Assembly (NCBI GenBank): GCA_963742415.1
Contig: CAVULX010000003.1
Span: 448,001 to 512,000 of the forward strand
Direction of reading: 5' to 3'
Length of the DNA: 64,000 nucleotides
DNA from: an uncultured Parachlamydiaceae bacterium
Lineage (GTDB): Bacteria; Chlamydiota; Chlamydiia; Chlamydiales; Parachlamydiaceae
Position 1 is the first letter of the stretch, and every line of letters begins with the position of its first letter. The notes under the pieces are model-generated. The model did not search any database and was not told the origin of the DNA. It saw nothing but the letters and a program-made list of their open reading frames with translations. Of the stretch, positions 13,185 to 36,307 are shown in pieces. A program made the translations under genes and the position numbers.

Positions 13185-13200
13185 CCATCTGGCGGATGAG

Positions 13201-13259: not shown

Positions 13260-13307
13260 CAATTGGAAACAGCAGCTTGAATGCGGTTCTTGTGAGAAAA
13301 AATGGGA

Positions 13308-16282: not shown

Positions 16283-16431
16283 TTTATTTACATTAAATAA
16301 TTAACTACATAATAAATGAATAATTTTATATTAAATGCAAATTTTAAACAAGATTGATTTTTATTTATGAATAATAGCAATTACCTTGCTAGCGTGGGAA
16401 GATTCATAAGTTTTGAAAAGTTCTTCAGTTT

Positions 16432-17915: not shown

Positions 17916-19769
17916 TTGTCCTACATTAGCTCAGACTTAGCCATAGAAAGATTTATACATCCTATTGATTACGTAGATTCCAAATTGGAGGATGTATCGC
18001 GTACTTGGCTTATTTTAGCCACCACTATTACTTTGGTTACCCTTTATATTTTTGTGCAGTTATTGAATAAACCTTGGGGGATCGCACGGCGAGAGCAGAT
18101 TGGAAGAAAGTTGCTTAAAACCCCTTTTATAAGGAAAAGATATGACGCTAAGATTCAAGAAGAGTACGATAAATTTAGAGAATCAGTTAAAAATATACGG
18201 CGCCAATTTGGTCCAATTTATCATTCGATTCCTTGTCAAGGATTGAAAACAGAAGCACTTCTCCAGTTAGTAAGAAAATACAGTGATGTAACATTCAATA
18301 AAGTAAAAGATAAACAACTATCTGGAACTATTTATTCTAAAAGCCTTGTGAAAAAAAATGCGGAAAGTCAGATAAAGCATGAAGAATTTAAATTTGATGA
18401 CTTAGAGGAAATCGGATCAGACTCTGATTATTTTGAGGCTCTTTCAGAAAAGCTTGAGCTCCTATTTTGCGAAGCTTTTAAGCAAGCTTATCTTTGGAAT
18501 TCTTTGCATAGGCATGAATTTGCCATTGGATCCTTTCTTGAGCACCAAGTTGTACAGATGGCTGCCAATATGTTTGGCGCTTCAGTCGAAATAGATGAAG
18601 TGGATAACGTGATGGGCTTTGTTACTTCAGGGGGGACTGAAAGCTTAATGCTAGCCGTTCGGATCTATAGGGAATGGGGGGCTGTAAATAAAGGGCATCA
18701 GCCTGGTGAAAGTGTCATCATTGCTAGTAAATCCGTCCATGCAGCTATTGAGAAGGGTTGTCAAGCCTATCAGGTAAAGCTTGTTCTGTTGGAAACTGCT
18801 GAGGATGGAAAAACGGATGTGGAACTTCTCAAAAAAACCATCAAGCAATATGGGAGTAAAGTTGTAGCTATAATCGGGTCTGCTCCGTCGTATATTGCAG
18901 GGGTGATGGATCCTATTGAAGAGATGGCAGCCGTTGCCTTTGAATATGGGATCGGGTTTCATGTCGATTGCTGTTTGGGCGGCTTCATTGTAAATAATTT
19001 AAAACACCTCAAGACTGATTTTTGCAAAGAGAAAGGGGTGACCAGTCTATCAGCGGATACACACAAAAACGGGCTGGCTCCAAAAGGATCCTCCGTTCTT
19101 TTGACAATGATGCTTGGGGATGAAAATCTAGCAAAGTATGCTATCTATGTTATACCAGGTTGGAGCGGGGGAGTTTATGGAACCCCAAAAGACGCTGGGA
19201 GTCAATCCTGTGTTCCTGCTTTGATGGCTTTTTTGGCTCTCCTTGCAACAGGCCAATCTGGTTATAAACGGCTTGCACAAAGCATATACAAAAGCGCTTG
19301 CGAGGTGGCTGATTTTATCCTTGGCTGTAAAGGTCGATTAAAACTCATCGCCTACCCGCAAGCCAACGTTGTAGCTTTTAAAATAGATCCCCAGTGGGGA
19401 TTGCAGAAGGGGGCTATTTATGCTTTTGCGCATGAGATGGCTCAACATGGTGTCGTTTTAAACGCCATGGCCAAGGAAAAGGTTCATTTTTGCATCACAG
19501 CCCGCTTTTCCGGCGATCCAAACGGATTGCATTTATTTAAACAAGCGGTTAATTCAAGCTTAAAAAATGTTGAAAAGCTTAATGAACAACTCCTTAAAGA
19601 AGGGAAAAAATTCCCTGGAGATGCGGGGATGTATTGCAGTCTTGAAGCTGCTTTGGCGCCGCGAAGAGAGACTCTTTCTTTCGCAAAGTACATTGAAAAT
19701 ATGATGTTAGGGGTCCTAGGTGCCAAGGATGCAATCAGAGCCTACTATTTGGCAGATCTCGCCCCTTGA
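17916..19769 (+). CDS. Sphingosine-1-phosphate lyase-like PLP enzyme
   Basis: N-terminal TM; SGTIY, TSGGTESL, SVHAA, GSAPSY, HVDCCLGGF, GVTSLSADTHKNGLAPKGSSV (PLP lysine), WSGGVY. Confidence 0.85.
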   Translation: MSYISSDLAIERFIHPIDYVDSKLEDVSRTWLILATTITLVTLYIFVQLLNKPWGIARREQIGRKLLKTPFIRKRYDAKIQEEYDKFRESVKNIRRQFGPIYHSIPCQGLKTEALLQLVRKYSDVTFNKVKDKQLSGTIYSKSLVKKNAESQIKHEEFKFDDLEEIGSDSDYFEALSEKLELLFCEAFKQAYLWNSLHRHEFAIGSFLEHQVVQMAANMFGASVEIDEVDNVMGFVTSGGTESLMLAVRIYREWGAVNKGHQPGESVIIASKSVHAAIEKGCQAYQVKLVLLETAEDGKTDVELLKKTIKQYGSKVVAIIGSAPSYIAGVMDPIEEMAAVAFEYGIGFHVDCCLGGFIVNNLKHLKTDFCKEKGVTSLSADTHKNGLAPKGSSVLLTMMLGDENLAKYAIYVIPGWSGGVYGTPKDAGSQSCVPALMAFLALLATGQSGYKRLAQSIYKSACEVADFILGCKGRLKLIAYPQANVVAFKIDPQWGLQKGAIYAFAHEMAQHGVVLNAMAKEKVHFCITARFSGDPNGLHLFKQAVNSSLKNVEKLNEQLLKEGKKFPGDAGMYCSLEAALAPRRETLSFAKYIENMMLGVLGAKDAIRAYYLADLAP

Positions 19770-19803
19770 AAAATGCAATCGTCCATTGCTGGAATCCATA
19801 ATT

Positions 19804-19873
19804 AGGGACAATAACCAAAATTGTCCCTCTCTCCAATGTCCCTAAGATCGTTTAAGTCCCTATTGTCCCTTTT
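19804..19873. repeat. AGGGACAAT/ATTGTCCCT repeat hairpin between convergent genes
   Basis: AGGGACAAT-7 nt-ATTGTCCCT plus three further GTCCCT units. Confidence 0.65.
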
Positions 19874-19899
19874 TCAAATGGTGTCTCTCTGGTCTTTTA

Positions 19900-21459
19900 C
19901 TACAGCCACTCGATGGTGCCAGGGGGTTTGGAGGTGACGTCGTAGACGACCCGATTGATGGCGGGGATTTCATTGACAATGCGGGTGCTTACGCGGCCGA
20001 GCAACTCCATGGGCAAAGGGGAAAATTCTGCGGTCATCCCATCGGAACAAGAGACCGCTCTGAGTGCAATGACATGGCCTTCTGTGCGTTGATCTCCCAT
20101 GACACCAACCGTCTTCACAGGCAAAAAAACAGCGAAGGCTTGCCAGATTTTATCGTAAAATCCCGCCTGTGTGATTTCCTCTAAGTAAATTTCATCTGCG
20201 TGCCGCAAAACATCAAGCCGTTCCTGAGTCACTTCACCTAGAATGCGAATAGCGAGACCCGGCCCAGGAAAAGGGTGACGGTTGACTAGATTTGGAGGGA
20301 TCCCTAATTCCGCGCAGAGGGCTCTCACTTCATCTTTAAAAAGTTTAGCGTTAGGTTCTACTAGAAGCCCTTCCCGCCGTTTTTTTTCAATAATGGGAGG
20401 GGACACATTATGGTGGCTTTTGATGACTGCTGCATGCTGTCCGCACCCTTTGCCGCTTTCAATGAGGTCGGTGTATAGTGTTCCCTGACAATAAAAAAAC
20501 TTTTCACCAGGTTGGCCGATGTGTGAGATCTCATCTTCCAAGATTTTAATAAATAGTTCCCCGATAATATGCCTTTTGGCTTCCGGATTTGTAACCCCTT
20601 CCAATGCCCCAAGGAATTTAGTGGAAGCATCTACAAACAGCACATTTTTCATTCCATGATTTTTGAGAAGCTCTAAAACTTGACGGCTTTCCCCTTTTCT
20701 CATCAGCCCTGTGTCGATGTGAATCGGAAATACCTTATCTGCGCCTAACGCTTTGTAGCACAGAAAAGTAGCCGCTGTTGAATCCACCCCCCCGCTGACG
20801 AGGCTGATCACTTTTCCTTTGCCCACCTGGCGGCAGATCTCATGGAGGATATTTGGGAGATACTGTTTCACTGACCAAGAAGGGGCGCAAGAGCAGATTT
20901 TTAAGAAATTATCTATGATTTTCTTCCCTTTGGGCGTATGGCCGACTTCCGGATGAAATTGCACACCATATTGGGGAAGATCGTGGTGTTGGATAGCGGC
21001 AATGAGATTATCCCGGCTCGTGGCGATGCTATGAAAGCAAGGCGCCAATGTTTCAATGCTATCTCCGTGACTCATCCAAACAGATTCTTGGTTTTCCATT
21101 TCGTAAAACAAGGGACTCTTGGTATTGACCTTGATCGATTGTTTCCCGTATTCCCCCTTGCTTAATTTTTTGACAGAGCCTTGGTTTGCGGCATTTAGAA
21201 GATGCATTCCATAGCAGATTCCAAGCAGGGGGATGGGGCAAGTTAAAATTTTTGGATCAAAAGGAATTTGAGTTTGATAAACGGAGGCAGGACCCCCTGA
21301 GAGGATGATCCCCTTAGGAGCCTCGGCCATTAAATCTTCCATGGAAATGCTTGGAGAACGTATTTCTGAGAACACATTTAATTCCCGGATCCTCCGCGCG
21401 ATGATATGGGTATATTGCGATCCAAAATCTAGGATGATAATTTTATCTAATGTTTGCAT
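19900..21459 (-). CDS. guaA: GMP synthase (glutamine-hydrolysing)
   Basis: ILDFGSQY, GICYG, QFHPEV, SGGVDS, IKSHHNV, RHPFPGPGL, SKPPGTIEW. Confidence 0.97.
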   Translation of the reverse strand: MQTLDKIIILDFGSQYTHIIARRIRELNVFSEIRSPSISMEDLMAEAPKGIILSGGPASVYQTQIPFDPKILTCPIPLLGICYGMHLLNAANQGSVKKLSKGEYGKQSIKVNTKSPLFYEMENQESVWMSHGDSIETLAPCFHSIATSRDNLIAAIQHHDLPQYGVQFHPEVGHTPKGKKIIDNFLKICSCAPSWSVKQYLPNILHEICRQVGKGKVISLVSGGVDSTAATFLCYKALGADKVFPIHIDTGLMRKGESRQVLELLKNHGMKNVLFVDASTKFLGALEGVTNPEAKRHIIGELFIKILEDEISHIGQPGEKFFYCQGTLYTDLIESGKGCGQHAAVIKSHHNVSPPIIEKKRREGLLVEPNAKLFKDEVRALCAELGIPPNLVNRHPFPGPGLAIRILGEVTQERLDVLRHADEIYLEEITQAGFYDKIWQAFAVFLPVKTVGVMGDQRTEGHVIALRAVSCSDGMTAEFSPLPMELLGRVSTRIVNEIPAINRVVYDVTSKPPGTIEWL

Positions 21460-22889
21460 AGTGACTCCAATTGGGTGATCTCATGGCGGCGCAAAGCTTG
21501 AAAACGTTCCACGTCGGAGGTTTCGGAAGGATATTTTCCATTGAGGCAGGCTAAGCAGAGGTCATTAATGCCAATCGAACGTTTTAAATCTTCGATGTCG
21601 TTGTATATGACCTCATCGGCGTCGATAGCTTTGGCTATTTCTTCACAAGTTTTTTCCGAAGCGATGAGTTGCTCTTTGTGGGAAAAATCGATGCCGTAAA
21701 AGCAAGGGTGCTTAACTGGAGGGAAAGTGGAAGCAAAATAGATTTTTTTGGCTCCGGCTCTTTTCACCAATCCGATGGCTTTCTTTGAAACGGTCCCTCT
21801 GATGATGCTATCGTCAACAAGGATGACATTCTTGTTTTGCAAAACATAAGGAATGGCTTCCAACTTATTTAAGGCTGCTTTTTCACGTCCTCCCTGTGTT
21901 GAGGAGAGGAAAGTACGGCCTACATAAGGCTTACGAATAAATCCTTCTTCATAGGGAATATTGAGTTTCCGGGCTAAGCTTATGGCAGCAGGCCGAGCTG
22001 TATCTGGAATCGGGACAACTACATCCGCAGTGAGTTCTTTCTCTTGAAATTTTTTTGCCAGGGCTATCCCCAATTGGGAGCGGATCCGGTAGATCTCTTG
22101 CTCTTCCATCGTTGTATTCATTTTTGCAAAATAGACAAATTCGAAGCTGCAGTGGAAATGGTCGCTTTTGATCAGATGCTGCCGATACACTTTATGGTTG
22201 TGATCAATAAAGACCACTTCACCTGGTTCGATCACTTCTATGTTTTGAAAGTTGAGAAATGAGAGAGCTTCCGTTTCTGAAGCAAAGGCATGGGATTTGG
22301 TTTGGGGTTGGATGCCATAGAGCAAAGGTCTAATCCCCTGAGGATCTCTGAATGCGACCAACCCCAGACCGGGAATCATGCCGATGACTGAATAGGCTCC
22401 TGACGTTTGCTTATAAACTTTCATGGTTGCGGCGCAAATGTTGTCGAAGGTGATCTTCTTTTTTGGCAAGTTTTGGGCGAAAAGGTGGAGGAGGACTTCG
22501 ATATCGCAGGAGGTTTGGATGAGGACCTGCTTGCTTTGGAGTTCATTTTTCAAGCTGACATAGTTGACGATGTTTCCGTTGTGGGCCATGGCGACAATGC
22601 GCCCTTCTTCGTCCGTATATTGAGGTTGAGTGTCTTCGAGTGAATTATTTCCTATAGTTGCATAACGTATATGGCCAATTCCCCAGAGGGCCTCGCTGCA
22701 TAGGGGGTTATGAGTTCCAAAGACATCGTGGACTAATCCAAGATTTTTTTTTAACTCATATTTATCTTTTCTTGGATCATATGTAAACACACCGGCAGCA
22801 TTCTGACCCCGGTGTTGAAGCCGCAGTAACCCTTGGTAAAGAGCATCATGAATGGGTTGATTGCTAACAATGCCAAAAATGCCACACAT
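21447..22889 (-). CDS. purF: Amidophosphoribosyltransferase (Fe-S type)
   Basis: MCGIFG, LQHRGQ, HNGN, VDDSIIRGT, PCFYGIDF, LCLAC. Confidence 0.97.
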   Translation of the reverse strand: MCGIFGIVSNQPIHDALYQGLLRLQHRGQNAAGVFTYDPRKDKYELKKNLGLVHDVFGTHNPLCSEALWGIGHIRYATIGNNSLEDTQPQYTDEEGRIVAMAHNGNIVNYVSLKNELQSKQVLIQTSCDIEVLLHLFAQNLPKKKITFDNICAATMKVYKQTSGAYSVIGMIPGLGLVAFRDPQGIRPLLYGIQPQTKSHAFASETEALSFLNFQNIEVIEPGEVVFIDHNHKVYRQHLIKSDHFHCSFEFVYFAKMNTTMEEQEIYRIRSQLGIALAKKFQEKELTADVVVPIPDTARPAAISLARKLNIPYEEGFIRKPYVGRTFLSSTQGGREKAALNKLEAIPYVLQNKNVILVDDSIIRGTVSKKAIGLVKRAGAKKIYFASTFPPVKHPCFYGIDFSHKEQLIASEKTCEEIAKAIDADEVIYNDIEDLKRSIGINDLCLACLNGKYPSETSDVERFQALRRHEITQLESLCKH

Positions 22890-22909
22890 CTTTACACTCT
22901 CCTCTTACG

Positions 22910-23713
22910 TTAATTTATGACTTCCATATCGTACCCTTTGTCAGATTGTTTAGTTCCGTCGATGTAAATAATGTTTTTTTGATCGATGCCTATGCGTCCT
23001 TGTGAGATGAGGGTGATGGCACGCAAGCAGGCAGGCCCATCGCTTAACAGTTTTTGTTTCTCTTGGTGGATATTAGCCAATTCAGCCGTTACAGGACGGG
23101 GCTCGACATAGCTCACTTTAGGCCCTGAAACTAAGACCGGGCCCCCGTCAATTTCCTCGTTGACGAGAATAATGTTAGAACGGGTGAAAGATTCTCCTGC
23201 CAACAAAGCCTCATACACAGCATTTAAGCCCGTATAGGCCCGATTTCCTTGCAAATTTAGAACAGACAGATCTGCAGGATGAATATTGAGAACTTTATTG
23301 GGAAATGTGTTTAGCAATGCTTTTGACAACAACTGCATGTAGCCGGCCAAGAGGATCATATCGACCGTAAAGCGGTATTTTTTCGAACATTCTTGGAGAA
23401 GTTCAACAATTTCCTGGTCATACTGAAGACGAGCGTCTTGAGCTGTCATTCGGCTGATTTCTTCCCTTCTTGAAAAATTCACAAAGGAGTGGTAAATGAC
23501 AGGAATTCCCTCACGCTCCCCGATTTCTTGAAATCGACATTTCTTATTGACGAACAAGGCTTTAATTCGGAAGGGAGGGGAAGGGGATTTTTTTTGCGCC
23601 TCTAAAAGAAATTCCAAATTTACCCCTTTTCCGGAGCCCATGACAACGACATTCATCTCTTTTTTCGGAATCGGTTGATAAAGGAGAGAGATCGGTGTCT
23701 TCTTTGGAATCAT
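22910..23713 (-). CDS. purN: Phosphoribosylglycinamide formyltransferase (divergent)
   Basis: SGKGVNL, LAGYMQ, LNIHP, EIDGGP; located in the pur cluster. Confidence 0.85.
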   Translation of the reverse strand: MIPKKTPISLLYQPIPKKEMNVVVMGSGKGVNLEFLLEAQKKSPSPPFRIKALFVNKKCRFQEIGEREGIPVIYHSFVNFSRREEISRMTAQDARLQYDQEIVELLQECSKKYRFTVDMILLAGYMQLLSKALLNTFPNKVLNIHPADLSVLNLQGNRAYTGLNAVYEALLAGESFTRSNIILVNEEIDGGPVLVSGPKVSYVEPRPVTAELANIHQEKQKLLSDGPACLRAITLISQGRIGIDQKNIIYIDGTKQSDKGYDMEVIN

Positions 23714-25008
23714 TAAACTTTGACCTCCAGGTTTTTTAAGGCTTGATATGCGATGTCCCTCCTGTAATAGGAATTTTCAAATTCAATCTCGTTGACACCA
23801 TCATAAGCTGCAGAGACCGCCTCTTCTAACGAAGCTCCCCATCCTGTAATTCCCAAAACACGCCCTCCTGATGTGACCAGACGCCCTTTTGCATCTTGAG
23901 AGGTCCCGGCATGAAAAGCGGTGCAGTTTGGATGCTTATTTAACTTATCTAACCCTTTAATCTCATATCCCGTTTGAAAATGTTCTGGATAACCTCCAGA
24001 AACCATTACCACGCAGCAGGAAGCTTTCTTGGCCCAATGGATGTTCTCTTCCTTTAATTTTCCGTGGATGCAAGCGCGCATAATTTCGGCAAGATCACTT
24101 TGCAAAAGGGGCAGCACAGCTTGTGCTTCCGGATCCCCAAAGCGACCGTTATATTCAAGAACTTTTGGACCTGAAGCTGTTATCATTAATCCAAAATAGA
24201 TCACACCCTTGTACTCAATTCCCTCTTTGATCAGCCCCGCTTGAGTCGGCTCGATGATTTCCTCTCTGATTTGCTGCAGCAGTTCGGGGCCGGCCAAAGG
24301 AACTGGAGAGTAGGCTCCGATCCCTCCAGTGTTGGGCCCGGAGTCTCCCTCATAAAGCCGTTTATGATCTTGTGAAGGGATCATTGGGATTATCTTTTTT
24401 CCATCTGCGAAAGCCAAAATTGAAAGCTCAAAACCCTCTAGTTTTTCCTCTACGACAATTTCTTTACCGGCTGAACCGTAGCGCAAATCTCCCATCACTG
24501 TTTGAATGGCTTTAAAGGCCTCCTGGGGGGAACGGCAAACAAGGACCCCTTTTCCCCCAGTTAGGCCGGAGCATTTGATGACAACGCCATTCCATTTGGA
24601 AAAATAATCTTGAACAGCCTTTTCGGCTTCTTGGATAGAGCGGCAACTTACATGACGGGCAGTGGGAATGTGGTGATTGACCATAAATTTTTTGGACGCA
24701 ACTTTATTGCTTTCAAGTTGCACAGCCTTTTGTGTAGGGCCGAACAGAGGCTGCCCTTGAGCTGCAAAAGCATCTGCAATGCCATCGGCAAGCAATTGTT
24801 CAGGACCCACTACGGTCATGTCTATTTTTTGAGACGCGGCAAACTGGCTGAGTGCCGCAAAGTCTTTCAGATTTAATTCCGGAGAAGGGAGGCAAATTTC
24901 TTGCGTACCCCCATTTCCAGGAAAACAAAAAACTTGATGCCCTTGCTGCTTGAATTTGTGAGCGAGGGCATGCTCTCGACCACCATTTCCTAAAACTAAA
25001 ATTTTCAT
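23713..25008 (-). CDS. purD: Phosphoribosylamine-glycine ligase
   Basis: GNGGREHAL, VGPE, QDHKR..GPNTGG, RFGDPEAQ, TSGGRVL. Confidence 0.97.
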   Translation of the reverse strand: MKILVLGNGGREHALAHKFKQQGHQVFCFPGNGGTQEICLPSPELNLKDFAALSQFAASQKIDMTVVGPEQLLADGIADAFAAQGQPLFGPTQKAVQLESNKVASKKFMVNHHIPTARHVSCRSIQEAEKAVQDYFSKWNGVVIKCSGLTGGKGVLVCRSPQEAFKAIQTVMGDLRYGSAGKEIVVEEKLEGFELSILAFADGKKIIPMIPSQDHKRLYEGDSGPNTGGIGAYSPVPLAGPELLQQIREEIIEPTQAGLIKEGIEYKGVIYFGLMITASGPKVLEYNGRFGDPEAQAVLPLLQSDLAEIMRACIHGKLKEENIHWAKKASCCVVMVSGGYPEHFQTGYEIKGLDKLNKHPNCTAFHAGTSQDAKGRLVTSGGRVLGITGWGASLEEAVSAAYDGVNEIEFENSYYRRDIAYQALKNLEVKV

Positions 25009-26336
25009 AGCGGCGCTTCGGTTATTTTAAGGATTTTGGCTGCTGCCAAAGCTGCATTTTGGGGGTCAATGATCGTCATGGAAGGAATTTGGCTAGGCAA
25101 TTGCAGCGAGGAGTGGATGTTCGTCAGATAATCGCTGTAGTCTTTAAAGGGTGGACAAGCGATCACAGGCCATTTAAGATGGGCCGCTACCACAGCCGAT
25201 AGGGCATTGCTTTTTCCTGCCACAGTGATGCATACAAGAGGTTCGATTGATTGATTGTACTGCGCAATGAGATTGGCTACTTTTTCTGGGTGCTTATGGG
25301 CTGAGGCCACACAAAATTTAAAAGGGATCCCCTGCTCTTGAAGAGTTTCTGTAATTTTGTCCACATGGGGTTGATCTTTTTCGCTGCCGCTGATAAGCAA
25401 AGCAAATTTTCCTTTGATCATTTGGGCTTTTTTTAAATTAGATAACAACCGTTTAGAGGAAGCCTCGTTATCCTCCGGCAAGGGAAGCCCTGTAATTAAC
25501 TGATAAATTTGACGATAACTATTGCGGGCCTCTTCTCGAACCTGCGGCGATAAGGAAGGGGCTGATCCTGTGCCTGTAAACCCTTGTTTCCTCATCCATT
25601 CCCGAATCATTTCCTTGTCGGGGTACTTCACTTCTTTAGTCTCATAATCTTTCTGAAACCAAAAGCGGGAGGAATCGGGAGTATGGATTTCGTCGATTAA
25701 AATTAATTGATTTTCGGCGTCCAATCCAAATTCATATTTCGTATCAACTAAGATCAACCCCTTTTGCCGAGCAATTTCCTGCCCTCGCTGATAGAGTTTT
25801 AAGGCCGTTTTTTCTATTTGATTCCAAAGCTTTTCGGAGACAATGCCTTGGGCGATAATCTCCTCTTTGGTAATGTCTTCATCGTGTCCTGAAACACTTT
25901 TTGTTGTAGGCGTAACTATAGGGGTGGAAAGGGGTTCATTAAGTTTCAAACCTTCGGGTAAAGAGACGCCGCATTTTTTTCGTTTTCCTGCTTGGTAATC
26001 TCTAGCTAATGAGCCTGCCAAGTAACCCCGCACAATCACTTCGATCATGATAGGCTGACATTTTTTGACGAGAAGCACATTGGGGTCGGGGTGTGCAACC
26101 ACATGGTTAGGAATAATATCTTTCGTTTTTTCAAACCAAAAGTGGGACAACATCGTCAACACTTTGCCCTTATCTTCGATGGGCTCTGCTAAAACGCAAT
26201 CGAAAACGGAAACACGATCGCTTGAAATAAGAGTGAGCAAATTGTCTTGTTCGTAGATTTCGCGCACTTTTCCGCTGCGAGGAATCCCGAGTTCAGGAAT
26301 AAAAACATGTTTCAGTGTATTACTTTCTTTTTTCAT
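25005..26336 (-). CDS. purC: Bifunctional SAICAR synthetase / class II AIR carboxylase (PAICS-like PurC-PurE fusion)
   Basis: SGKVREIY, SDRVSVFD, LVDTKYEFG, DEIHTPDSSRFW, then GSEKD, SAHK, VAGKSNAL, PVIACPP, SSLQLPS. Confidence 0.92.
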   Translation of the reverse strand: MKKESNTLKHVFIPELGIPRSGKVREIYEQDNLLTLISSDRVSVFDCVLAEPIEDKGKVLTMLSHFWFEKTKDIIPNHVVAHPDPNVLLVKKCQPIMIEVIVRGYLAGSLARDYQAGKRKKCGVSLPEGLKLNEPLSTPIVTPTTKSVSGHDEDITKEEIIAQGIVSEKLWNQIEKTALKLYQRGQEIARQKGLILVDTKYEFGLDAENQLILIDEIHTPDSSRFWFQKDYETKEVKYPDKEMIREWMRKQGFTGTGSAPSLSPQVREEARNSYRQIYQLITGLPLPEDNEASSKRLLSNLKKAQMIKGKFALLISGSEKDQPHVDKITETLQEQGIPFKFCVASAHKHPEKVANLIAQYNQSIEPLVCITVAGKSNALSAVVAAHLKWPVIACPPFKDYSDYLTNIHSSLQLPSQIPSMTIIDPQNAALAAAKILKITEAPL

Positions 26337-26394
26337 GAACGCTCCTTATTGCTAGTAATTAACGTAAGTTGCAAATAATAAAATTTATTGTCTT

Positions 26395-26459
26395 TCTGTG
26401 TTCTCTGTGATCTCTGTGGTTGAATTTTAATAAACCACAGAGATCACAGAGAACACAGA
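26395..26459. repeat. Perfect 27-bp-arm hairpin built of 9-bp CACAGAGxx units
   Basis: TCTGTGTTCTCTGTGATCTCTGTGGTT-11 nt-AACCACAGAGATCACAGAGAACACAGA in the purH-purCE spacer. Confidence 0.9.
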
Positions 26460-26505
26460 GGTTTTTTAAACTTGATTACACTCAGTAATTTTCAACTTAC
26501 ATTAA

Positions 26506-28176
26506 TTAATGATAAAAATACCTTTCTCCAGTAAAAATCATGCACATATTGAGTTCATCAGCCGCATTGATAATTTCTTGATCACGCATTCCGCCCCCTG
26601 GCTGGATAACGGATTGAATCCCCTGCGAAGCTGCATAACGGATGCTGTCGTCGAAAGGAAAGAACCCATCGCTGGCAAGGATACAATGTTTTAGATCCTT
26701 TATAGGATCATAATGGGGATCGTCATGGTGTTCTTGACGCAAGTTTTCGATCGCTTTCGGCAGGGCCAATCGTTGCAAGCTGTCTATCCGGTTTGGCTGC
26801 CCAACTCCCATTCCGAGCAATTGATAAAATCCCGGTTCGTATTCCCTGACGATGGCAATGGTATTTGATTTGGCAAATTGAACTGCTGAAATTGCGAAAT
26901 CCCATAATTTTTTTTGATTCGTTTGAGGCTGCTGCTTGGTGACGACTCCTAGCTTCGTTTTAGAAGAGGCGCTGCTGCTGCAGGGTTGAAATAACGAGTC
27001 CAGCGGAGGATGAAATTTCCGGTCTTTCTTTGTTTGAACGAGCATTCCACCGCTGATGCTTTTGTAAATTAAATCTTCAGATGGTTCAAAGCTAGTTTTG
27101 AGAAGCCTCAAGTTTGGCTTGGATGATTTGCTCCATTCAATAAACTGATGATCGAATTCCGGAGCCACGATCACTTCCACAAATTTATCTTTAAGAACAG
27201 GGATTAAATCGGAAGAGACTTTGGCGTTAAAGGCGATGACGCTACCAAAGGCGGATTTGGCATCGCACTCCCAAGCCTTTTCAAAAGCTCTTGTAGAGGT
27301 TTTTCCCGTCGCATAAGCGCACAAACTTCCATGTTTGACGATAGCGACGCCTGGATGTGCACCGATCATATTGAGCTCTTGAGCGGCATAATAAGCGAGC
27401 GTCCCATCTTCGTAGTTATTAAAAGAAAGTTCTTTTCCCGATAACATTTCAGCGTGGGCAATACCCGTTTGACCCTCGAACTGATAAACCCATCCCTGTT
27501 GGCTAGGATTTTCCCCGTAACGCAATTTCTTCCCTTGAGCAAGCTGAAGATTATGGGTCTCTTGATCTTCTCCCAATTTCACAAATTCTTTGGCCAGAGT
27601 CGCTTCGTAATCGGCGCTGACTTTCATCGCTTTTGCTGCCAGCCTTTGCCTCGTTTTTAAAGATAGGGCCCCCTTGTTTTCTGTTAATTCATGCAAGAGG
27701 GTTGGATAATCTTTTGAGTCTACAACAACAGCCACAGCTGCATAATTTTTGCTTGCGCTCCGGATTAAAGTTGATCCCCCAATGTCCATCGATTCGATCA
27801 GTTCATCCATATTGGGGCGTGGCTGCTTTTTCAATGCTCCCTTGAAGTCGTACAAATTGCAGACGACAAGGTCGATCGAGGGGATGTCCAGCTGCTTGGA
27901 TTCCTTTTCATCCAGGTTCCTGCGGAAAAGAATTCCCCCCATGATCCTGGGGTGGAGCGTCTTGACCCTATCTCCAAAACAGGCAGGAAAGTTTGTATAT
28001 TTATGTAACGGGGTATAAGGAATCCCATGGTCGGCAAGGGTTTTGGCTGTTCCCCCCGAGGCTATAATTTTGATGCGGGGATTAAGCTTCAGGAGGTTTT
28101 GCGCCAATTCACGGAGCCCGGTTTTATCCGTGACGCTAAATAAAGCCGTTTGGATTGGAATTTGTTCTGAACTCAT
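26506..28176 (-). CDS. purH: Bifunctional AICAR transformylase/IMP cyclohydrolase
   Basis: SVTDKTG, RVKTLHP, DIGG, LRYGENPSQ, KSAFG, ASDGFFPF, QPGG. Confidence 0.96.
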   Translation of the reverse strand: MSSEQIPIQTALFSVTDKTGLRELAQNLLKLNPRIKIIASGGTAKTLADHGIPYTPLHKYTNFPACFGDRVKTLHPRIMGGILFRRNLDEKESKQLDIPSIDLVVCNLYDFKGALKKQPRPNMDELIESMDIGGSTLIRSASKNYAAVAVVVDSKDYPTLLHELTENKGALSLKTRQRLAAKAMKVSADYEATLAKEFVKLGEDQETHNLQLAQGKKLRYGENPSQQGWVYQFEGQTGIAHAEMLSGKELSFNNYEDGTLAYYAAQELNMIGAHPGVAIVKHGSLCAYATGKTSTRAFEKAWECDAKSAFGSVIAFNAKVSSDLIPVLKDKFVEVIVAPEFDHQFIEWSKSSKPNLRLLKTSFEPSEDLIYKSISGGMLVQTKKDRKFHPPLDSLFQPCSSSASSKTKLGVVTKQQPQTNQKKLWDFAISAVQFAKSNTIAIVREYEPGFYQLLGMGVGQPNRIDSLQRLALPKAIENLRQEHHDDPHYDPIKDLKHCILASDGFFPFDDSIRYAASQGIQSVIQPGGGMRDQEIINAADELNMCMIFTGERYFYH

Positions 28177-29006
28177 TGATTTTTCTCCAAAAATTCAATC
28201 GCATTTTTAAATAAAAAAAATCCTGAACCGTAGGTGTCGTTTTTTTTATTTTTTCGATCCCAAAGTTCTTTATTCCTTGTCCACTGGGGGTGATGTGTAG
28301 AAAAAAGGGCAGCCTCGGGATGGGCCATCATCCCCAAAATTCTTCCTGTTGAGTCGGAAATGCCTCCAATATTCTGTTGAGAACCATTGGGGTTGCAGGG
28401 ATAAGTTGAAGCAACTTTCCCATTTTCATCAGCATACTGCAGTACGATTTGCTTGCCATTGACCAGTTGTTTCAGGGTGGATTCATCTTTAACGATAAAC
28501 TTACCCTCTCCATGCCTTATGGGAAGATAAAGTTGATCAATTCCTTGAGTAAAAACGGAGGATGACGGGCATACACGGTGGTTGACCCACCGGTTTTCGA
28601 AACTCCCAGAATCATTAGCAGCAAGAGATACAGATTGGGAATGCGCATTGGATCCTGGGAGCAATCCAAGCTTGACAAGCATTTGAAAACCATTGCAAAT
28701 GCCTAGAATGCAATTTCCTCGGGCCACAAAATCGATTAAACGTTGTTTCAAAGAGGTCGGGGATGAAGAGCGGACATGCGAAATTTTATTGGCCAAAACT
28801 TTGGCGGCCCCAAGTTCATCACCAAATGAAAATCCTCCGGGAAAGAGGATAAGGCGATATTTTTCTAATGGAAAATGGTGATCGAAAAAATGGCGCACAT
28901 GCATTGTACACGTGTCGGCGCCTGCTATTTTGCATGCCAGCGCAAGCTCTCTTTCACAATTAATGCCGTATCCTGAAATGACGAGAGCTTTTACTTTAGC
29001 CATCAC
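28173..29006 (-). CDS. purQ: FGAM synthase glutaminase subunit
   Basis: GINCE, PGGFSFGD, GICNGFQ, HGEG, NPNGS, GMMAHPE. Confidence 0.95.
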   Translation of the reverse strand: MMAKVKALVISGYGINCERELALACKIAGADTCTMHVRHFFDHHFPLEKYRLILFPGGFSFGDELGAAKVLANKISHVRSSSPTSLKQRLIDFVARGNCILGICNGFQMLVKLGLLPGSNAHSQSVSLAANDSGSFENRWVNHRVCPSSSVFTQGIDQLYLPIRHGEGKFIVKDESTLKQLVNGKQIVLQYADENGKVASTYPCNPNGSQQNIGGISDSTGRILGMMAHPEAALFSTHHPQWTRNKELWDRKNKKNDTYGSGFFLFKNAIEFLEKNQ

Positions 29007-32000
29007 TCTCCCTCCGAAATACCAGGAAATTTGCTCAAAGGTCTCTGCCAGTTTGCTTTTAGTGCCCTGACCTCTTCATCAATTAAAAGCGAACCATTTA
29101 ACCCTTTTATTTTCAGATATTTATGTGGAGTCACTTCGCCAATCCTTTGACAAATACAGTTTCTCATGCAATCTTCGAAGGCTTTTTTCTTCAAAGGATT
29201 GGCAGTGACGAGAAGACGGCTGGCTGATTCAGAAAATAAAATTTCACCTTCTGAGATCGGATCCTCAACAGGAATTAAACTGAGGTCGACCGAGATTCCC
29301 AAATCTCCACCAAAGGCTTTTTCAGCTAAAGCCACGGCAATCCCTCCTTCAGAGCAATCATGACAAGAAGAAACCAAGTTTAGTTCCATCGCTTGGTGCA
29401 AAGCTTGATAGGATTTCTTTGCTTTTTTCGCTTCCACTTTGGGAACATTTCCACCCTTTAACCCTTTGATAGATGCATATTCAGAACCACCGCATTCATT
29501 CTTGGTAGCACCGATGATATAAACCCAATCCCCCGCAACCTTAACATCTGTTGAAACGATTTTTTCAAGGGAGTGGACTTTTCCGATAGCTGTGATTAAA
29601 AGAGTTGGGGGAATGGAGATTTTGATAGCATCCATTTTGTAATCATTCTTCATGCTATCTTTGCCTGAGATAATTGGTGTTTCGAATTCTTTGGAAAAAA
29701 AGTACAAGGATTTAACTGCTCGCACGAGCTGTGCCAGCTTGTATTTTCCGTCGGGTGTTTTGTGTTCATCGTAAATGGGATCTGGCCAGCAAAAATTATC
29801 TAGAATAGAAATGCTGGAGGGATCGCAACCCGAGGCGACCAGGTTGCGGATCGCTTCATCTAAAGCGTTCGCAGTCATGTGGTAAGTATCCAAGCTGCTA
29901 TAACGGGGGCAAATTCCATTTGAAATCCCGATTCCCGCCTTTTCGGTTTCTTCCCAAAATTCTGTAGGAAATAGAATGGCAGCGTCACTGGGAGCATCTT
30001 GATATATCCCTGTCAATGGCTTGAGGACGGTTCCTCCTTGGACTTCGTGGTCGTACTGCCGAATGATCCTTTCTTTGCTGCAAATGTTGTAACTGGATAA
30101 CAAAGCATGCAAATCAGGCCCATAATCCCTCTTTTGTTCTAGCCGCAATTCCTGCATTTTTGGAGTTTTCCATTCGGCTTGTAGACGCTGCTGGGGCAAT
30201 CCTCCATGCAAAAAATGAAGAGGGAGAAGGGCGACAGTTTTTTCGTTAAATAAAACATGAAAATTCCCGTCCCCTGTAAAAAGCCCAAGCACACAAAGTT
30301 CGACTTCATGCAAATCAGCAAGAGCTTGCAGCTGCTCGAGGTTTTCTGGAGCTGCTGCCAAGGTCATTCTTTCTTGGGATTCGCTCAGCAATATTTCCCA
30401 CGGCAATATCTGGGGATGTTTCAATAAAGCTTTATCGAGATGGATCTTGCACCCGTCAGAAAGTTGTGCCAGCTCACCAACTGAAGAGGAAAACCCTCCT
30501 GCACCATTGTCTGTGATAGCTCGATAGAGGTTTTGGTCCCTTGCTTCAAGCAAAAAATCCTGCATTTTTTTCTGTGTGAAAGGATCCCCAATTTGCACTG
30601 CGCTTAAGGGGCTTCCTGCGTGGAATTCTTCTGAAGAAAAGGTGGCCCCATGGATTCCATCCTTTCCGGTTCGTCCGCCTGCGATGACAATCAGATCGCC
30701 TGGATGAATGACTTTTAGATGTGTGGAGGCTCCACCGATGGTGGAGGGCATCAACCCCACAGATCCACAATAGACAAGCGGTTTACCCAGATAACCTTCA
30801 TCAAAAACGATAGCTCCATTCACTGTAGGAATGCCGCTTTTGTTACCCCCGTGTTCAACCCCTTTGCGAACGCCTTCAAAGATACGCTTGGGATGCATTA
30901 ATCTTTTGTAAAGGCTTTTTTTGTAATTGGGTGGAGCAAAGCAGAAAACATCTGTATTGGCAATCAATCTTGCTCCAAGGCCAGCGCCTAAAATATCTCT
31001 ATTGACTCCCAATATACCTGTCAGGGCCCCGCCATAAGGATCTAAAGCTGAAGGGCTATTATGTGTTTCAACCTTTACGGCGAGATTGTAATTTTTATTA
31101 AAGCGGATAATCCCTGCATTATCGGTGAAAACAGAAACTAGCCAATCCACCTTTTTGGACAGCTCTTCCGTTGCTTTTTGAATGTATGTCTTAAATAAAC
31201 TGTCAATCTCCTCTGTTTTACCATCTTCTGTATAGGTGATTTTAGCATTAAAAATTTTATGTTTACAATGCTCGCTCCAAGTTTGGGCAATGGCTTCTAA
31301 TTCTACATCAGTAGGGTTTGAAGGCAACCCGTAACGGGCCCGGCTTTGGGCTGTTGTTTGTAAAGAATAATAATCTCGGATGGTTTGCATTTCGGCTAAA
31401 TTTAAAGCGAGCTGCCGTTGTTTGCTTAGCTCCATCAAAGCGTGGTCAGGAAGTTGAATATCAATCACTTCGGCATTATGGGATTTTTCCCGAATAGAAC
31501 CTGATCTTTTCGGATGGCGCCTGTTAGTTAGAATAATTGGATGGGAAGAATGGGAAGTGATTTTTTGAATATGAATATCTTCGATAAGGCTATTGCCCAA
31601 TAAGTCGTGGGCTATCTTATGGACTTCCGAATCGGATAAAGCCCCCTGTAAAAGATATTGTGTGGCTGTATAAACGTCTTCATCTTCGCCAAAAAGAAGC
31701 CCTGTAAAATCTTCGATCGTCGTTTTAGCTGTATCGGCCGATGTATTTGTGATCCCTGGTTTCAAAGCGATTTCAATGATCCAGTTGTAATCTTTATAAA
31801 GATCTTCTAAGAACACGTTCTCTTCGAGGAGGGGATCGATTAAGGGCCCATGAGCGATGGCGAAGAGCTGCTGCTCAGAGAAAGGCTTGAAGATGTAATA
31901 AGCTTTGATGATTTTAACAGCTTCGACTTGAATTTGAAGAAATTCCCTTATGGTGGCTGCGAGTTTTTTGCTCGCGTGGTTGCCCGCTTCAGACTTGTGT

Positions 32001-32053
32001 GCAATGCCTATTTTATGACAAACAGGAGTGGCCACTGAAGAGGTTATGCCCAT
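29003..32053 (-). CDS. purL: FGAM synthase synthetase subunit with N-terminal PurS-like extension
   Basis: AQTWSEHCKHKIF, KVETHNSPS, DGIHGATFSS, DNGAGG, SESQERM, ISGKDSM; ATG at 32053 overlaps the purM end. Confidence 0.96.
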   Translation of the reverse strand: MGITSSVATPVCHKIGIAHKSEAGNHASKKLAATIREFLQIQVEAVKIIKAYYIFKPFSEQQLFAIAHGPLIDPLLEENVFLEDLYKDYNWIIEIALKPGITNTSADTAKTTIEDFTGLLFGEDEDVYTATQYLLQGALSDSEVHKIAHDLLGNSLIEDIHIQKITSHSSHPIILTNRRHPKRSGSIREKSHNAEVIDIQLPDHALMELSKQRQLALNLAEMQTIRDYYSLQTTAQSRARYGLPSNPTDVELEAIAQTWSEHCKHKIFNAKITYTEDGKTEEIDSLFKTYIQKATEELSKKVDWLVSVFTDNAGIIRFNKNYNLAVKVETHNSPSALDPYGGALTGILGVNRDILGAGLGARLIANTDVFCFAPPNYKKSLYKRLMHPKRIFEGVRKGVEHGGNKSGIPTVNGAIVFDEGYLGKPLVYCGSVGLMPSTIGGASTHLKVIHPGDLIVIAGGRTGKDGIHGATFSSEEFHAGSPLSAVQIGDPFTQKKMQDFLLEARDQNLYRAITDNGAGGFSSSVGELAQLSDGCKIHLDKALLKHPQILPWEILLSESQERMTLAAAPENLEQLQALADLHEVELCVLGLFTGDGNFHVLFNEKTVALLPLHFLHGGLPQQRLQAEWKTPKMQELRLEQKRDYGPDLHALLSSYNICSKERIIRQYDHEVQGGTVLKPLTGIYQDAPSDAAILFPTEFWEETEKAGIGISNGICPRYSSLDTYHMTANALDEAIRNLVASGCDPSSISILDNFCWPDPIYDEHKTPDGKYKLAQLVRAVKSLYFFSKEFETPIISGKDSMKNDYKMDAIKISIPPTLLITAIGKVHSLEKIVSTDVKVAGDWVYIIGATKNECGGSEYASIKGLKGGNVPKVEAKKAKKSYQALHQAMELNLVSSCHDCSEGGIAVALAEKAFGGDLGISVDLSLIPVEDPISEGEILFSESASRLLVTANPLKKKAFEDCMRNCICQRIGEVTPHKYLKIKGLNGSLLIDEEVRALKANWQRPLSKFPGISEGE

Positions 32054-33009
32054 TTCATCTGCTCTCCAGAAATAATTCTTCCAATAACAAAGCATTCATG
32101 GTCGCGTTGACAAAGGGTTTCGGCCTCTTTAGGACTCAGAGCTAGGACCATTCCTATCCCCATATTAAAAGTCCGGTACATCTCAGGCTCTTCAATATTT
32201 CCAATTTCCTGGAGCCATCGAAAAATAGGGGGAATGGGCCAACTTTTCTTGGTGATCATCACAGACTTACCTGGAGGACACATTCGGGGAATGTTGTCGA
32301 TAAATCCACCCCCTGTGATATGGGCCATCCCTTTGATTTTAAAATGTTTCAAAATATTAAATATCTTTTTCACATAAATCCGGGTAGGGATAAGCAACGT
32401 TTCCCCTAATGTAAAAGGGGTATTTTTGAAAGATTGGTTTAAAGAGAGATTTGAGTCGCGGATGATTTTCCGAACTAAAGAATATCCATTGCTATGGAGA
32501 CCGCTCGAGGCAATACCGACTAAAAGGTCGCCGTTTTCAATTTTGCTGCCATCGATGAGTTCATTTTTTTTAACGATCCCCACTGTGAAACCTGCAAGAT
32601 CATATTCCCCTTCTTGATAGAAATCGGGCATTTCGGCAGTTTCTCCACCGAGCAATGGACACTCTGCCTGGTCGCACCCTTCCTTTATCCCTTTGAGGAT
32701 GCTTTCGGCTTTATCTATGTCTAATTTTGATGTTGAGAGGTAATCGAGAAAAAACAACGGCTTAGCCCCCGTTGTCAAAACGTCATTGACATTCATCGCT
32801 ACCAGGTCGATGCCGACGGTGTGGTGACGGTTCAGGGCAAAGGCAAGTTTGAGCTTGGTTCCTACTCCATCTGTGCTTGCTACGAGGTAGTTTTCCCCTA
32901 GTTCATAAAGGCCCCCAAACCCCCCGATTTCAGGGCAAAGGGATTTTAACCTCTTTACAAAAGCATTGCCGGCTTCAATGTCAACACCCGCTTCTTTATA
33001 AGTAGTCAT
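32044..33009 (-). CDS. purM: AIR synthetase
   Basis: YKEAGVDI, TDGVGTK, GGETAEMP, SSGLHSNGYSL, HITGGG, TFNMGIG. Confidence 0.97.
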   Translation of the reverse strand: MTTYKEAGVDIEAGNAFVKRLKSLCPEIGGFGGLYELGENYLVASTDGVGTKLKLAFALNRHHTVGIDLVAMNVNDVLTTGAKPLFFLDYLSTSKLDIDKAESILKGIKEGCDQAECPLLGGETAEMPDFYQEGEYDLAGFTVGIVKKNELIDGSKIENGDLLVGIASSGLHSNGYSLVRKIIRDSNLSLNQSFKNTPFTLGETLLIPTRIYVKKIFNILKHFKIKGMAHITGGGFIDNIPRMCPPGKSVMITKKSWPIPPIFRWLQEIGNIEEPEMYRTFNMGIGMVLALSPKEAETLCQRDHECFVIGRIISGEQMKWA

Positions 33010-33014
33010 AGAAC

Positions 33015-34214
33015 TTAATCTTTCATTTCATTAGTTAAAGTCGAACACAACTGTTGTAAATTTTGAGAGCAGCTGTAATCTTCCCAATCTTTTCCAAAAC
33101 CTTGGTGCACGTTTCCCTCTCTTTTTGCGGCTTCGGAACGTTGTTCAAGCTGGATTTTATTTTGGACGGCATGCTGGTGCAAAGAGGCAATGCCGGAAAC
33201 TCCCAGCTTATGGAGCCCTTGCCGCAATGCTTGCAAAATGACAGGGAACAATTCTGCTGCCGAACCTTGCTCTGGTATTAATCCTGAAACACCTTCTGGA
33301 ACACGAAAATTGGAATTTTGGACAGCATAGCGAAAAGAACTTCCCTGCTGCATGGCTTTTAAAGATCCCATCCCCCGAAATTCTTTAAATATGATCCCGT
33401 TCCTCTCTTCTTTTTTGCCTGGAGTTTCGGCAGTACCGGCCAGCAATGATCCCAGCATGACTGTACTGGCGCCTAAAGCCAGAGCTTTGACGATGTCAGA
33501 TCCTTTTTTGATTCCTCCATCAGCGATGACTGGCACTCCATACTTCCTGCATACATTCGAGCACTCATACACGGCAGTCGCTTGCCCTCTTCCGACACCG
33601 GCAACCTCTTGCGTGGTGCAAGTGGATCCTGATCCCATTCCGACCCGAATCGCATCAACTCCGGCCTGAATCAGGTCTTCGCAGGCAGAAGCGGTCACCA
33701 CATTGCCTCCAACGACTTGTAGATGAGGATATGTTTTTTTAATCCAAAGGATCAGATTTTTTTCAAATTCCGTGTGCCCTTGAGACGTATCAAAAACAAT
33801 TACATCGGCCAAACCTTGGATGACATGGATCCGCTCTTCAGCCTTGGCTGGCCATGTTTCTACGGCAGCCCCTACTAATAATCTGTTTGATTTGTCGAAC
33901 GCCGCAGAAGAGGAGGATCCAGCCGCAGCATAGGATTTCACTTTATGTAATTCTTCAAGCTGTTTCTGAGGAGTCAGATTAAAATGGATGAAGCCGATTC
34001 CCCCTTTTAAAGCCAACGCGATTGCCATCTCGGCTTCGGTGACTGTGTCCATAGGGGAACTAGTTAAAGGGATGTTCAACTGAATTTCGCGTGTCAGCTG
34101 TGCTTTAAGGTCGATTTGCTCTAACTGGAAGTCTACATACCCAGGCAACAAGATCAGGTCGTCATACGTGAGGCTATATCCTGCAAATTTATTAAAAAAG
34201 CTGTTGATTTCCAT
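33015..34214 (-). CDS. guaB: IMP dehydrogenase lacking the CBS subdomain
   Basis: SSPMDTVTE, GNVVT, GMGSGSTCTTQEV (catalytic Cys), IADGGI, FRGMGS, PEGVSG. Confidence 0.95.
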   Translation of the reverse strand: MEINSFFNKFAGYSLTYDDLILLPGYVDFQLEQIDLKAQLTREIQLNIPLTSSPMDTVTEAEMAIALALKGGIGFIHFNLTPQKQLEELHKVKSYAAAGSSSSAAFDKSNRLLVGAAVETWPAKAEERIHVIQGLADVIVFDTSQGHTEFEKNLILWIKKTYPHLQVVGGNVVTASACEDLIQAGVDAIRVGMGSGSTCTTQEVAGVGRGQATAVYECSNVCRKYGVPVIADGGIKKGSDIVKALALGASTVMLGSLLAGTAETPGKKEERNGIIFKEFRGMGSLKAMQQGSSFRYAVQNSNFRVPEGVSGLIPEQGSAAELFPVILQALRQGLHKLGVSGIASLHQHAVQNKIQLEQRSEAAKREGNVHQGFGKDWEDYSCSQNLQQLCSTLTNEMKD

Positions 34215-34301
34215 AATCGCAGCCGTCAGATAAAATTAACTTATACCTCATAATCATTCGGAGCTTTTATCGGCAATATTTTTTTACACTTTAGAGTCAA
34301 T

Positions 34302-34340
34302 TTGGAGTGCGTCGGCTTGACGCATACGCATCAAGCTGAG
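34302..34340. repeat. REP-like fragment TTGGAGTGCGTCGGCTTGACGC
   Basis: GC-rich hairpin GCTTGACGC-atac-GCATCAAGC between hicB and guaB. Confidence 0.4.
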
Positions 34341-34351
34341 CAAAGATGCTC

Positions 34352-34636
34352 TTAGATTAGGCCGATTTTAATTTTGTTGTATCTAACCATAAACGCAAAA
34401 GCAATTGAAGGATCTACTTGAACCTCTACAACGTTTCTAGTAAGAGAAATGGAATCGTCCGGAAGCGACGCTAGTTTCTTTGAATCTTTCTGTTCTTCAA
34501 TATAAAGATTTAAAGCTTCCTGCATATTTTCGCGCATTTCTTCCATTGAATCGGCTTGCGTAAAGCATCCTGACAATTCAATACATTCAGCCCAAAAACC
34601 ATCTTTCTCTTTATGTATTCTGAAATGGTATTTCAT
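34352..34636 (-). CDS. hicB: HicB-family antitoxin, orphan, apparently truncated before the C-terminal HTH
   Basis: GFWAECIELSGCFTQADSMEEMRENMQEALNLY; no room for hicA upstream (nadE ends 11 bp away). Confidence 0.8.
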   Translation of the reverse strand: MKYHFRIHKEKDGFWAECIELSGCFTQADSMEEMRENMQEALNLYIEEQKDSKKLASLPDDSISLTRNVVEVQVDPSIAFAFMVRYNKIKIGLI

Positions 34637-34647
34637 AACTAATCCCT

Positions 34648-36297: not shown

Positions 36298-36307
36298 TCG
36301 CTAAGGC

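Follow-up and report, generated by a model that had tools for sequence, protein, structure and literature searches.

A predicted de novo purine biosynthesis operon in an uncultured Parachlamydiaceae bacterium and its place among chlamydial operons

Chlamydiae are textbook nucleotide parasites. Here, we describe a ten-gene purine operon (guaB-purM-purL-purQ-purH-purC/E-purD-purN-purF-guaA) in a 64,000-nucleotide stretch of DNA (hereafter the window) from an uncultured Parachlamydiaceae bacterium (GenBank assembly GCA_963742415.1, contig CAVULX010000003.1, positions 448,001 to 512,000). The operon is intact, and when genes from other parts of the genome are added it is predicted to encode a functional de novo purine pathway. 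Judged by sequence comparison, it belongs to an old lineage of operons specific to chlamydiae and is not a recent import. To this reading as a whole we assign a probability of about 0.8.

Genomes, contigs, loci, families, and one genus are given below by our own labels (G, C, L, f, and g numbers). The present genome (G000, family code f1) measures 2.69 Mb in 4 contigs, and the window corresponds to C3:448001-512000.

Gene content and predicted pathway

Ten minus-strand open reading frames (ORFs) fill window positions 19900-34214 in the order given above, all of them intact. Neighbors overlap by 1 to 52 nt or are separated by 5 to 20 nt (ORF list), and the sole larger spacer (169 nt) lies between purH and purC/E. 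Profile searches (NCBIfam and Pfam) name all ten, so the co-oriented, mostly abutting purine genes proposed in an earlier reading of the window (hereafter the sequence-only reading) stand. NCBIfam equivalog cut-offs were passed by seven (guaA, purF, purD, purC, purH, purL, and purM), with purL (529 bits against 526) and purC (273 against 251) among them; coordinates and further scores are collected in Table 1. The PurF N-terminus reads MCGIFG, placing the catalytic Cys directly after Met. PurN, aligned with the Escherichia coli enzyme (1c2t), carries LNIHPA where the latter has LNIHPS and IDGGPV where it has LDGGPV, and its true start is probably Met20.

GuaB is short. Residues 11-97 and 104-371 align with residues 26-112 and 236-505 of human IMPDH2, and because the aligned blocks skip the residues between them, the equivalent of IMPDH2 113-235 is absent. 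The protein thus has no Bateman (CBS) domain and instead has a linker of about 6 residues, while the GSGSxC catalytic loop is retained. Most of its chlamydial relatives (~500 to 530 aa) carry the CBS domain, and a minority (~355 to 435 aa) do not. The next-best matches beyond chlamydiae are eukaryotic (insect, plant, and coral), Woesearchaeota, and Planctomycetota IMPDH proteins (42 to 54% identity).

Two further pathway genes share contig C3 with the operon. The purB gene (C3:441847-443178; 389 bits, cut-off 326) lies ~6 kb ahead of the window, and purA is found at C3:192125-193396 (526 bits, cut-off 396). Genes for folate and one-carbon metabolism (folD, glyA, and folP), which bear on the supply of 10-formyl-THF, were found in the genome with open frames. 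The sequence-only reading had missed purB and purA in the window, had proposed looking for them and for folate and one-carbon genes in the whole genome, and had named a genome without purB as the finding that would overturn it; the whole-genome search supplied all of these genes. The inosine monophosphate (IMP) pathway set is therefore complete, with nine functions in the operon plus purB, and the purine prototrophy that the same reading put forward is plausible on gene content.

In the route that we propose, PurF, PurD, and PurN would convert phosphoribosyl pyrophosphate (PRPP) to formylglycinamide ribonucleotide (FGAR), and PurL, with a PurS-like domain replacing PurS, would act with PurQ to give formylglycinamidine ribonucleotide (FGAM), from which PurM would make aminoimidazole ribonucleotide (AIR). 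A class II PurE domain would carboxylate AIR directly with CO2, without PurK or ATP. The PurC domain would then yield succinylaminoimidazole carboxamide ribonucleotide (SAICAR), PurB (encoded ~25 kb from the operon) would release aminoimidazole carboxamide ribonucleotide (AICAR), and PurH would complete IMP. GuaB and GuaA would serve the GMP branch and PurA and PurB the AMP branch. Four nucleotide transporter (NTT, TLC family) genes are present, a tandem pair at the end of contig C3 (C3:994412-997661) and single genes at C3:149686-151146 and C3:38649-39956; since they are kept, synthesis would supplement import and not replace it.

The purC/E product joins an N-terminal SAICAR synthetase to a C-terminal AIR carboxylase. 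When the PurE domain alone was compared with the PDB, it matched 3rg8 (86.7 bits), 4ja0 (75.7 bits), and 2h31 (72 bits), and all other chains at no more than 50.5 bits (2ywx, 50.5; 1o4v, 43.7; E. coli class I 1qcz/1d7a, 29). Its motifs are ASAHK and AGKSNALS; 3rg8 and 2h31 have SAHK and AGRSNAL/GL, and the Methanocaldococcus jannaschii PurE (2ywx) has SAHR and AGLAAHLP. We take SAHK (not SAHR) and GRSNxL (not GxAAHLPG) to be the marks of class II PurE. Residues S345, H347, and K348 of the fusion do not vary among 15 fused homologues. The ranking of PDB matches and the motifs together assign the domain as a class II (CO2-using) AIR carboxylase, with which PurK would not be needed.

The top PDB match is the Treponema denticola class II PurE (3rg8/3rgg/5c5d), which has SAHK and G(R/K)SNxL in common with the chlamydial domain. 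Animal PAICS (human, 2h31; insect, 4ja0) has the same PurC-then-PurE domain order, but its chains match the fusion chiefly through the PurE half, and the PurC half is closer to yeast Ade1 and mycobacterial PurC (166 bits) than to the SAICAR synthetase half of PAICS; because of this unlikeness, the fusion probably arose independently of the animal one. Among the matches listed, it belongs to a family of fused prokaryotic proteins from many phyla. In a large protein collection, the only named proteins among its best-scoring homologues come from Waddliaceae, Rhabdochlamydiaceae, and Chlamydiota metagenome-assembled genomes (MAGs), and below ~52% identity the named homologues are from Woesearchaeota and Beckwithbacteria (48 to 50%).

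PurL is 1030 aa long (true start probably Met15, position 32053), with the small-type domain (TIGR01736, smPurL) at residues 258-1022 and the FGAR amidotransferase (FGAR-AT) linker (PF18072) at 220-280. An AlphaFold2 model of residues 1-300 (18-row alignment; mean predicted local distance difference test score, 81.7) contains two beta-alpha-beta-beta-alpha-beta units. Foldseek placed the N-terminus closest to Salmonella lgPurL (1t3t) and related entries (E ~1e-7) and also matched it to PurS (1vq3/1twj/1gtd; probability, 0.98 to 1.0). On this model a PurS-like double domain takes up the first ~200 aa of the protein, which would make a separate purS unnecessary. A PurL of this form (mdPurL) was described on sequence grounds in methanogens that lack purS (Brown et al. 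2011, PMC3261824; this and other papers are cited here for particular passages). The methanogen protein likewise has ~200 extra N-terminal residues, in the place of the PurS-like domain of lgPurL, a separate purQ, and no purS gene (PMC3261824). The passages cited describe mdPurL from archaea and from sequence; the present examples are bacterial (from chlamydiae and from the syntenic loci of Atribacterota, Cloacimonadota, Bacteroidota, and Myxococcota described below), and a model supports the PurS-like fold.

Distribution and descent of the operon

Distribution was assessed with purM (E ≤1e-30) in an even draw of 401 genomes of the phylum. Twenty-four genomes (G000 included) carry it (~6%), spread over 11 family codes: f1 (1/45), f19 (1/23), f21 (3/5), f5 (4/69), f22 (1/35), f8 (7/90), f24 (1/6), f29 (1/1), and f31 (2/5), plus f42 and f7. 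Among 40 relatives, purM scored above the cut-off in one (G019) and narrowly missed it in one other (G030). The only other holders found in f1 are G335 (1/45) and G019 (1/24). The purB gene is commoner, at 160/400 genomes, and all but 2 of the 23 other holders in the sample have it.

The surroundings of purM (up to 20 kb) were compared for 20 of the 24 other holders; four that sit on short contigs were left out. The full purM-L-Q-H-C/E-D-N-F order is present in 12 of these 20 loci (tblastn with the window proteins; 40 to 74% amino acid identity), and guaB in front with guaA behind in seven (six of the 12, plus L053). Of the other loci, some are cut off where the contig stops, and the rest are rearranged (G212 and G132), without a purN match (G390), or reduced; G019 retains purM-L-Q-D-N-F without purH and purC/E, and G230 retains purM with a divergent purC/E.

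For phylogeny, PurL, PurQ, PurH, PurC/E, PurD, and PurF were concatenated for loci with at least four of the six (29 rows, 2893 columns). Twelve loci with fewer were left out, L087, L110, L123, and L130 were dropped for speed and branch length, and PurM was excluded because its identities behave differently (see below). Trees were built with IQ-TREE (posterior mean site frequency model) and FastTree, and approximately unbiased (AU) tests were run on 21 rows (LG+G4). In the six-protein tree, 17 chlamydial operon rows form one clade, supported at 100 by the Shimodaira-Hasegawa-like approximate likelihood-ratio test (SH-aLRT), in which the window operon is sister to that of G335, a genome of the same family (SH-aLRT, 100). 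A further locus from f7 (L054, G030:C33:1-16117) has the same gene order and nests with Cloacimonadota, Bacteroidota, and Atribacterota (SH-aLRT, 100); the G030 operon, of a second and independent type, seems to have been imported separately from another phylum. FastTree agrees on the chlamydial clade, the pairing with G335, and the placement of G030. Per-gene phylogenies had been suggested by the sequence-only reading, and in a tree of PurC/E alone 13 chlamydial rows stay together (support, 80; inner node, 98). One fused PurC/E from Verrucomicrobiota (Opitutales) falls in the non-chlamydial cluster of that tree, so this single gene, with its one Opitutales sequence, gives no sign of inheritance from an ancestor of the Planctomycetes-Verrucomicrobia-Chlamydiae group.

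Host phylogeny was approximated with rpoB from 23 holder genomes only, in which G000 pairs with G335 and f1 falls together with f21 and f31. Among 50 genomes of the family, the nadE of G335 is the most similar to that of G000 (74%, against ≤66% for the rest). AU tests on the operon proteins did not reject groupings in line with rpoB, namely of f1, f21, and f31 (P = 0.30), of f5 and f8 (P = 0.145), or of the three f1 holders (P = 0.33). Monophyly of genus g93 (P = 4.5e-6) and of family f5 (P = 0.003) was rejected, which indicates some exchange among chlamydiae. Operon and rpoB distances are correlated (r = 0.60, over 55 non-independent pairs). No cross-family pair among the 55 compared has an operon divergence below 0.40, so any transfers between families would be old.

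The operon was most likely present in the common ancestor of G000 and G335. Most other lineages have probably lost it, and chlamydiae probably exchanged it to some extent in the distant past. The sequence-only reading, which favored horizontal acquisition, had named a widespread, vertically inherited operon in Chlamydiota as the finding that would speak against it. Wide occurrence in the phylum is largely what emerges, given the same order in holders from many families. The single clade, the groupings that the AU tests did not reject, and the distance correlation also allow a more far-reaching history, in which the operon was ancestral to the crown order that holds nearly all sampled chlamydiae, descended vertically, and was lost dozens of times; we consider this rather unlikely. 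Alternatively, the operon was imported once, long ago, and then passed between chlamydiae living in the same hosts; the two groupings rejected by the AU tests show that at least some exchange of this kind occurred. Crown ancestry, if true, would contradict the reconstruction of Dharamshi et al. (2023), which, in the passage cited, infers that purC, purD, and purH had already disappeared by the time of the last common chlamydial ancestor (PMC9816063). In that case, nucleotide parasitism would have arisen while purine synthesis was still in place, and a few lineages in many families would retain the pathway to this day.

The operon design is not a chlamydial invention, since at least five non-chlamydial loci share the gene order: one from Atribacterota (L066), two from Cloacimonadota (L058 and L061), a Myxococcota-classed MAG (L064), and a Bacteroidota MAG (L060). 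These came from a scan of one genome per species that gave at least 600 stretches, with one chlamydial locus among the matches listed. The five share the order (guaB)-purM-purL-purQ-purH-purC/E-purD-(purN)-purF, together with a fused PurC/E and an extended PurL, but their proteins are 25 to 45% identical to those of the window and form a separate clade (SH-aLRT, 100). PurM runs the other way: it is 29 to 34% identical to the PurM of these syntenic operons and 42 to 47% identical to PurM from Chloroflexota, Saccharibacteria, a proteobacterial MAG, and an archaeal MAG, in all of which the genes are ordered differently. The remaining operon proteins lack such a reversal, which suggests that purM was replaced in place in one of the two lineages.

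Purine synthesis in chlamydiae is already in print, as became clear when the novelty of the operon was checked, a step that the sequence-only reading had urged. In the passages cited, the IMP pathway is stated to be absent from cultured chlamydiae (PMC2878342, PMC4333871, and PMC6171736). Collingro et al. (2017) called a marine chlamydia the first possibly independent of host nucleotides (PMC5604735), and Dharamshi et al. (2019) reported chlamydial lineages capable of purine and pyrimidine synthesis (bioRxiv 10.1101/577767). The marine chlamydiae of those two reports have, as far as the cited passages go, a full or nearly full pathway together with nucleotide transporters, as here. They are single-cell or sediment genomes treated in one or two main-text sentences (PMC5604735; bioRxiv 10.1101/577767), while the present case is a 4-contig f1 genome with the full set. 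The word "purine" does not occur in the main text of Köstlbacher et al. (2021, PMC8242063). What goes beyond these reports is the conserved operon order, the single chlamydial clade, and the predicted dispensability of purK and purS; we found no description in the literature of the conserved operon, its chlamydial clade, or the chlamydial fusions, though supplements may draw it. With the basic claim known, the value of the operon lies in its documentation and in the evolutionary question. A near-complete genome with the whole pathway and two labor-saving fusions is a good template for the question of purine independence, and the distribution (one clade, ~6% of species, 11 families) bears on how and when host dependence evolved.

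Genomic setting and alternative explanations

That the operon is an island brought in recently from outside chlamydiae, as the sequence-only reading had proposed, is highly improbable. Such an island would fit the operon's position between the conserved nqrF-nadE pair and a region that varies among relatives (see below), as well as the orphan hicB-like ORF that abuts it; no hicA adjoins this ORF, whose neighbors are nadE (11 nt away) and guaB, and its Pfam match is weak (Table 1). The G+C content is somewhat raised (44.6% against 41.7% for the genome, the 96th percentile of 369 same-length windows), only two other holders of the operon were found in the family, and the clearly non-chlamydial operon of G030 shows that imports happen. 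Tetranucleotide usage, in contrast, is ordinary (distance at the 85th percentile of the same 369 windows). ARAGORN found no tRNA gene in the 64-kb window, and NCBIfam and Pfam scans found no integrase or transposase in the operon flanks. The non-chlamydial loci compared are only 25 to 47% identical per gene, and the exclusively chlamydial clade with a same-family sister is not what a recent foreign source would leave. The accessory zone that the sequence-only reading placed beside the operon does exist, as a low-GC region at ~5 to 17 kb, but no tRNA gene was found to go with it.

The nadE gene was found in 41 of 50 same-family genomes, and nqrF adjoins it in 21 of 29 relatives' loci. The region past nadE varies among genomes: none of 28 window ORFs tested lies directly downstream of it in the 29 loci, so that no empty insertion site can be defined, and the only other matches there are nqrF (21 loci) and a phosphatase homologue (2 loci). 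The G335 operon is 600 kb away from nadE, among unrelated neighbors, with no mobile genes among the 5 flank ORFs scanned. In G000 the operon thus borders a variable region, and it has changed place since the two genomes diverged; no feature points to a recent arrival.

A contaminant contig or chimeric join is exceedingly improbable. The 4-contig assembly does have local frame errors, in rpoB and prs; but the operon lies 468 to 482 kb into the 998-kb contig C3, flanks and operon alike have chlamydial nearest relatives, purB and purA are on the same contig, and the operon itself harbors an insertion of a genome-specific repeat, which recurs in 28 other alignments on three contigs. Contiguity with chlamydial markers, noted in the sequence-only reading, was borne out for nqrF (36308-37639; 571 bits, NCBIfam) and hctA (Hc1, 47692-48021).

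It is also improbable, if less remote, that the genes are relics of a decaying or partly used pathway in a cell dependent on imported nucleotides. The four retained NTT transporters would suit decay, as would the hairpin repeat inserted within the operon and the reduced sets of G019 and G230, which show decay in relatives. So would prs, the gene for PRPP supply, which is present (C4:79414-80312) yet split by frame breaks, and which as a true pseudogene would block the pathway. On the other side, the ten ORFs, purB, and purA are full length with intact catalytic motifs, and the repeat is intergenic and hits no gene. The prs breaks we read as assembly errors because the essential rpoB on the same contig (C4:459982-463409) is broken likewise, by short stretches that leave the reading frame and then regain it; similar interruptions are seen in rpoB of the few-contig genomes G335, G158, G277, and G402. 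The breaks in both genes are probably long-read assembly or polishing errors, and such errors may also explain why the 4-contig genome is estimated to be only 84% complete.

Beside the state of prs, several points weigh against a functional pathway of old chlamydial descent. Three assignments fall below their NCBIfam cut-offs: guaB (414 bits against 481.5), purN (Table 1), and the PurE domain (92.5 against 149.6). Neither a separate purS nor purK was found (for purK, the best TIGR01161 match, at 19 bits, lies within purD) in a genome estimated to be 84% complete. The 150-bp hairpin repeat could attenuate transcription of the distal genes. No Rfam family reached its gathering score in the window, leaving no riboswitch or known regulatory RNA there, and promoter and terminator scans gave 33 and 21 sites against 31.3 and 23.6 expected, which is chance level. 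On the phylogenetic side, the tree searches were quick ones, five long-read genomes contribute noisy rpoB rows, and the AU groups were picked after the tree was known, which makes their P values generous.

Repeat and neighboring features

The spacer between purH and purC/E is occupied by a palindromic repeat whose RNA fold contains a perfectly paired stem of 27 bp (−65.9 kcal/mol; z = −10.5). It gives 29 genome alignments of at least 100 nt at 85 to 100% identity on contigs C2, C3, and C4, the operon copy counted. In the closest relative, G335, the corresponding gap is 50 nt and the repeat is absent. At E ≤1, the Rfam matches in 19500-35000 were solely to microRNA models, on the repeat and on both strands; matching both strands, they were taken as an effect of the palindrome and not as a known RNA.

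Table 1. Features of the operon and of its surroundings in the window
Feature	Position	Strand	Basis
guaB, IMP dehydrogenase, 399 aa	33015-34214	-	PF00478, 416 bits
purM, AIR synthetase	32044-33009	-	TIGR00878, 418.8 bits vs cut-off 236
purL, mdPurL type, FGAM synthetase	29003-32095	-	TIGR01736 and PF18072
purQ, FGAM synthetase glutaminase subunit	28173-29006	-	TIGR01737, 179.2 bits vs 177.8 (narrow pass)
purH, AICAR transformylase/IMP cyclohydrolase	26506-28176	-	NF002049, 506.5 bits vs 402
Palindromic repeat, ~150 bp, like miniature inverted-repeat transposable elements (MITE) or repetitive extragenic palindromes (REP)	26356-26505	.	RNA fold and genome alignments
purC-purE fusion, 443 aa	25005-26336	-	PF01259 (residues 21-250), PF00731 (residues 314-440)
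purD, glycinamide ribonucleotide (GAR) synthetase	23713-25008	-	TIGR00877, 486 bits vs cut-off 288
purN, divergent GAR transformylase with insertions	22910-23713	-	TIGR00639, 93.5 bits, cut-off 150
purF, amidophosphoribosyltransferase	21447-22889	-	TIGR01134, 387.9 bits vs cut-off 350
guaA, GMP synthase	19900-21459	-	NF000848, 651 bits vs cut-off 400
Orphan hicB-like ORF, outside the pathway	34352-34636	-	PF15919, 28.4 bits vs cut-off 27
nqrF-nadE pair	34648-37639	-	NCBIfam; conserved family backbone bordering the operon
Schlafen AlbA_2 + HATPase_c_4 protein	5612-6961		
Helix-turn-helix + Peptidase_M78 protein	8540-9637		
ATPase_2/AAA protein	11630-13063		
Choloylglycine-hydrolase family protein	13514-14569		
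PRTase-CE domain protein	14753-16282		

The low-GC zone (35 to 38%, ~5000-16300) holds defense-like or accessory genes (Table 1). The other flank of the operon, beyond guaA, carries a pyridoxal phosphate (PLP)-dependent decarboxylase and ppa. The decarboxylase (17916-19769, 617 aa) has a long N-terminal extension and is convergent with guaA; its best models are MfnA and GAD, with all scores below the cut-offs.

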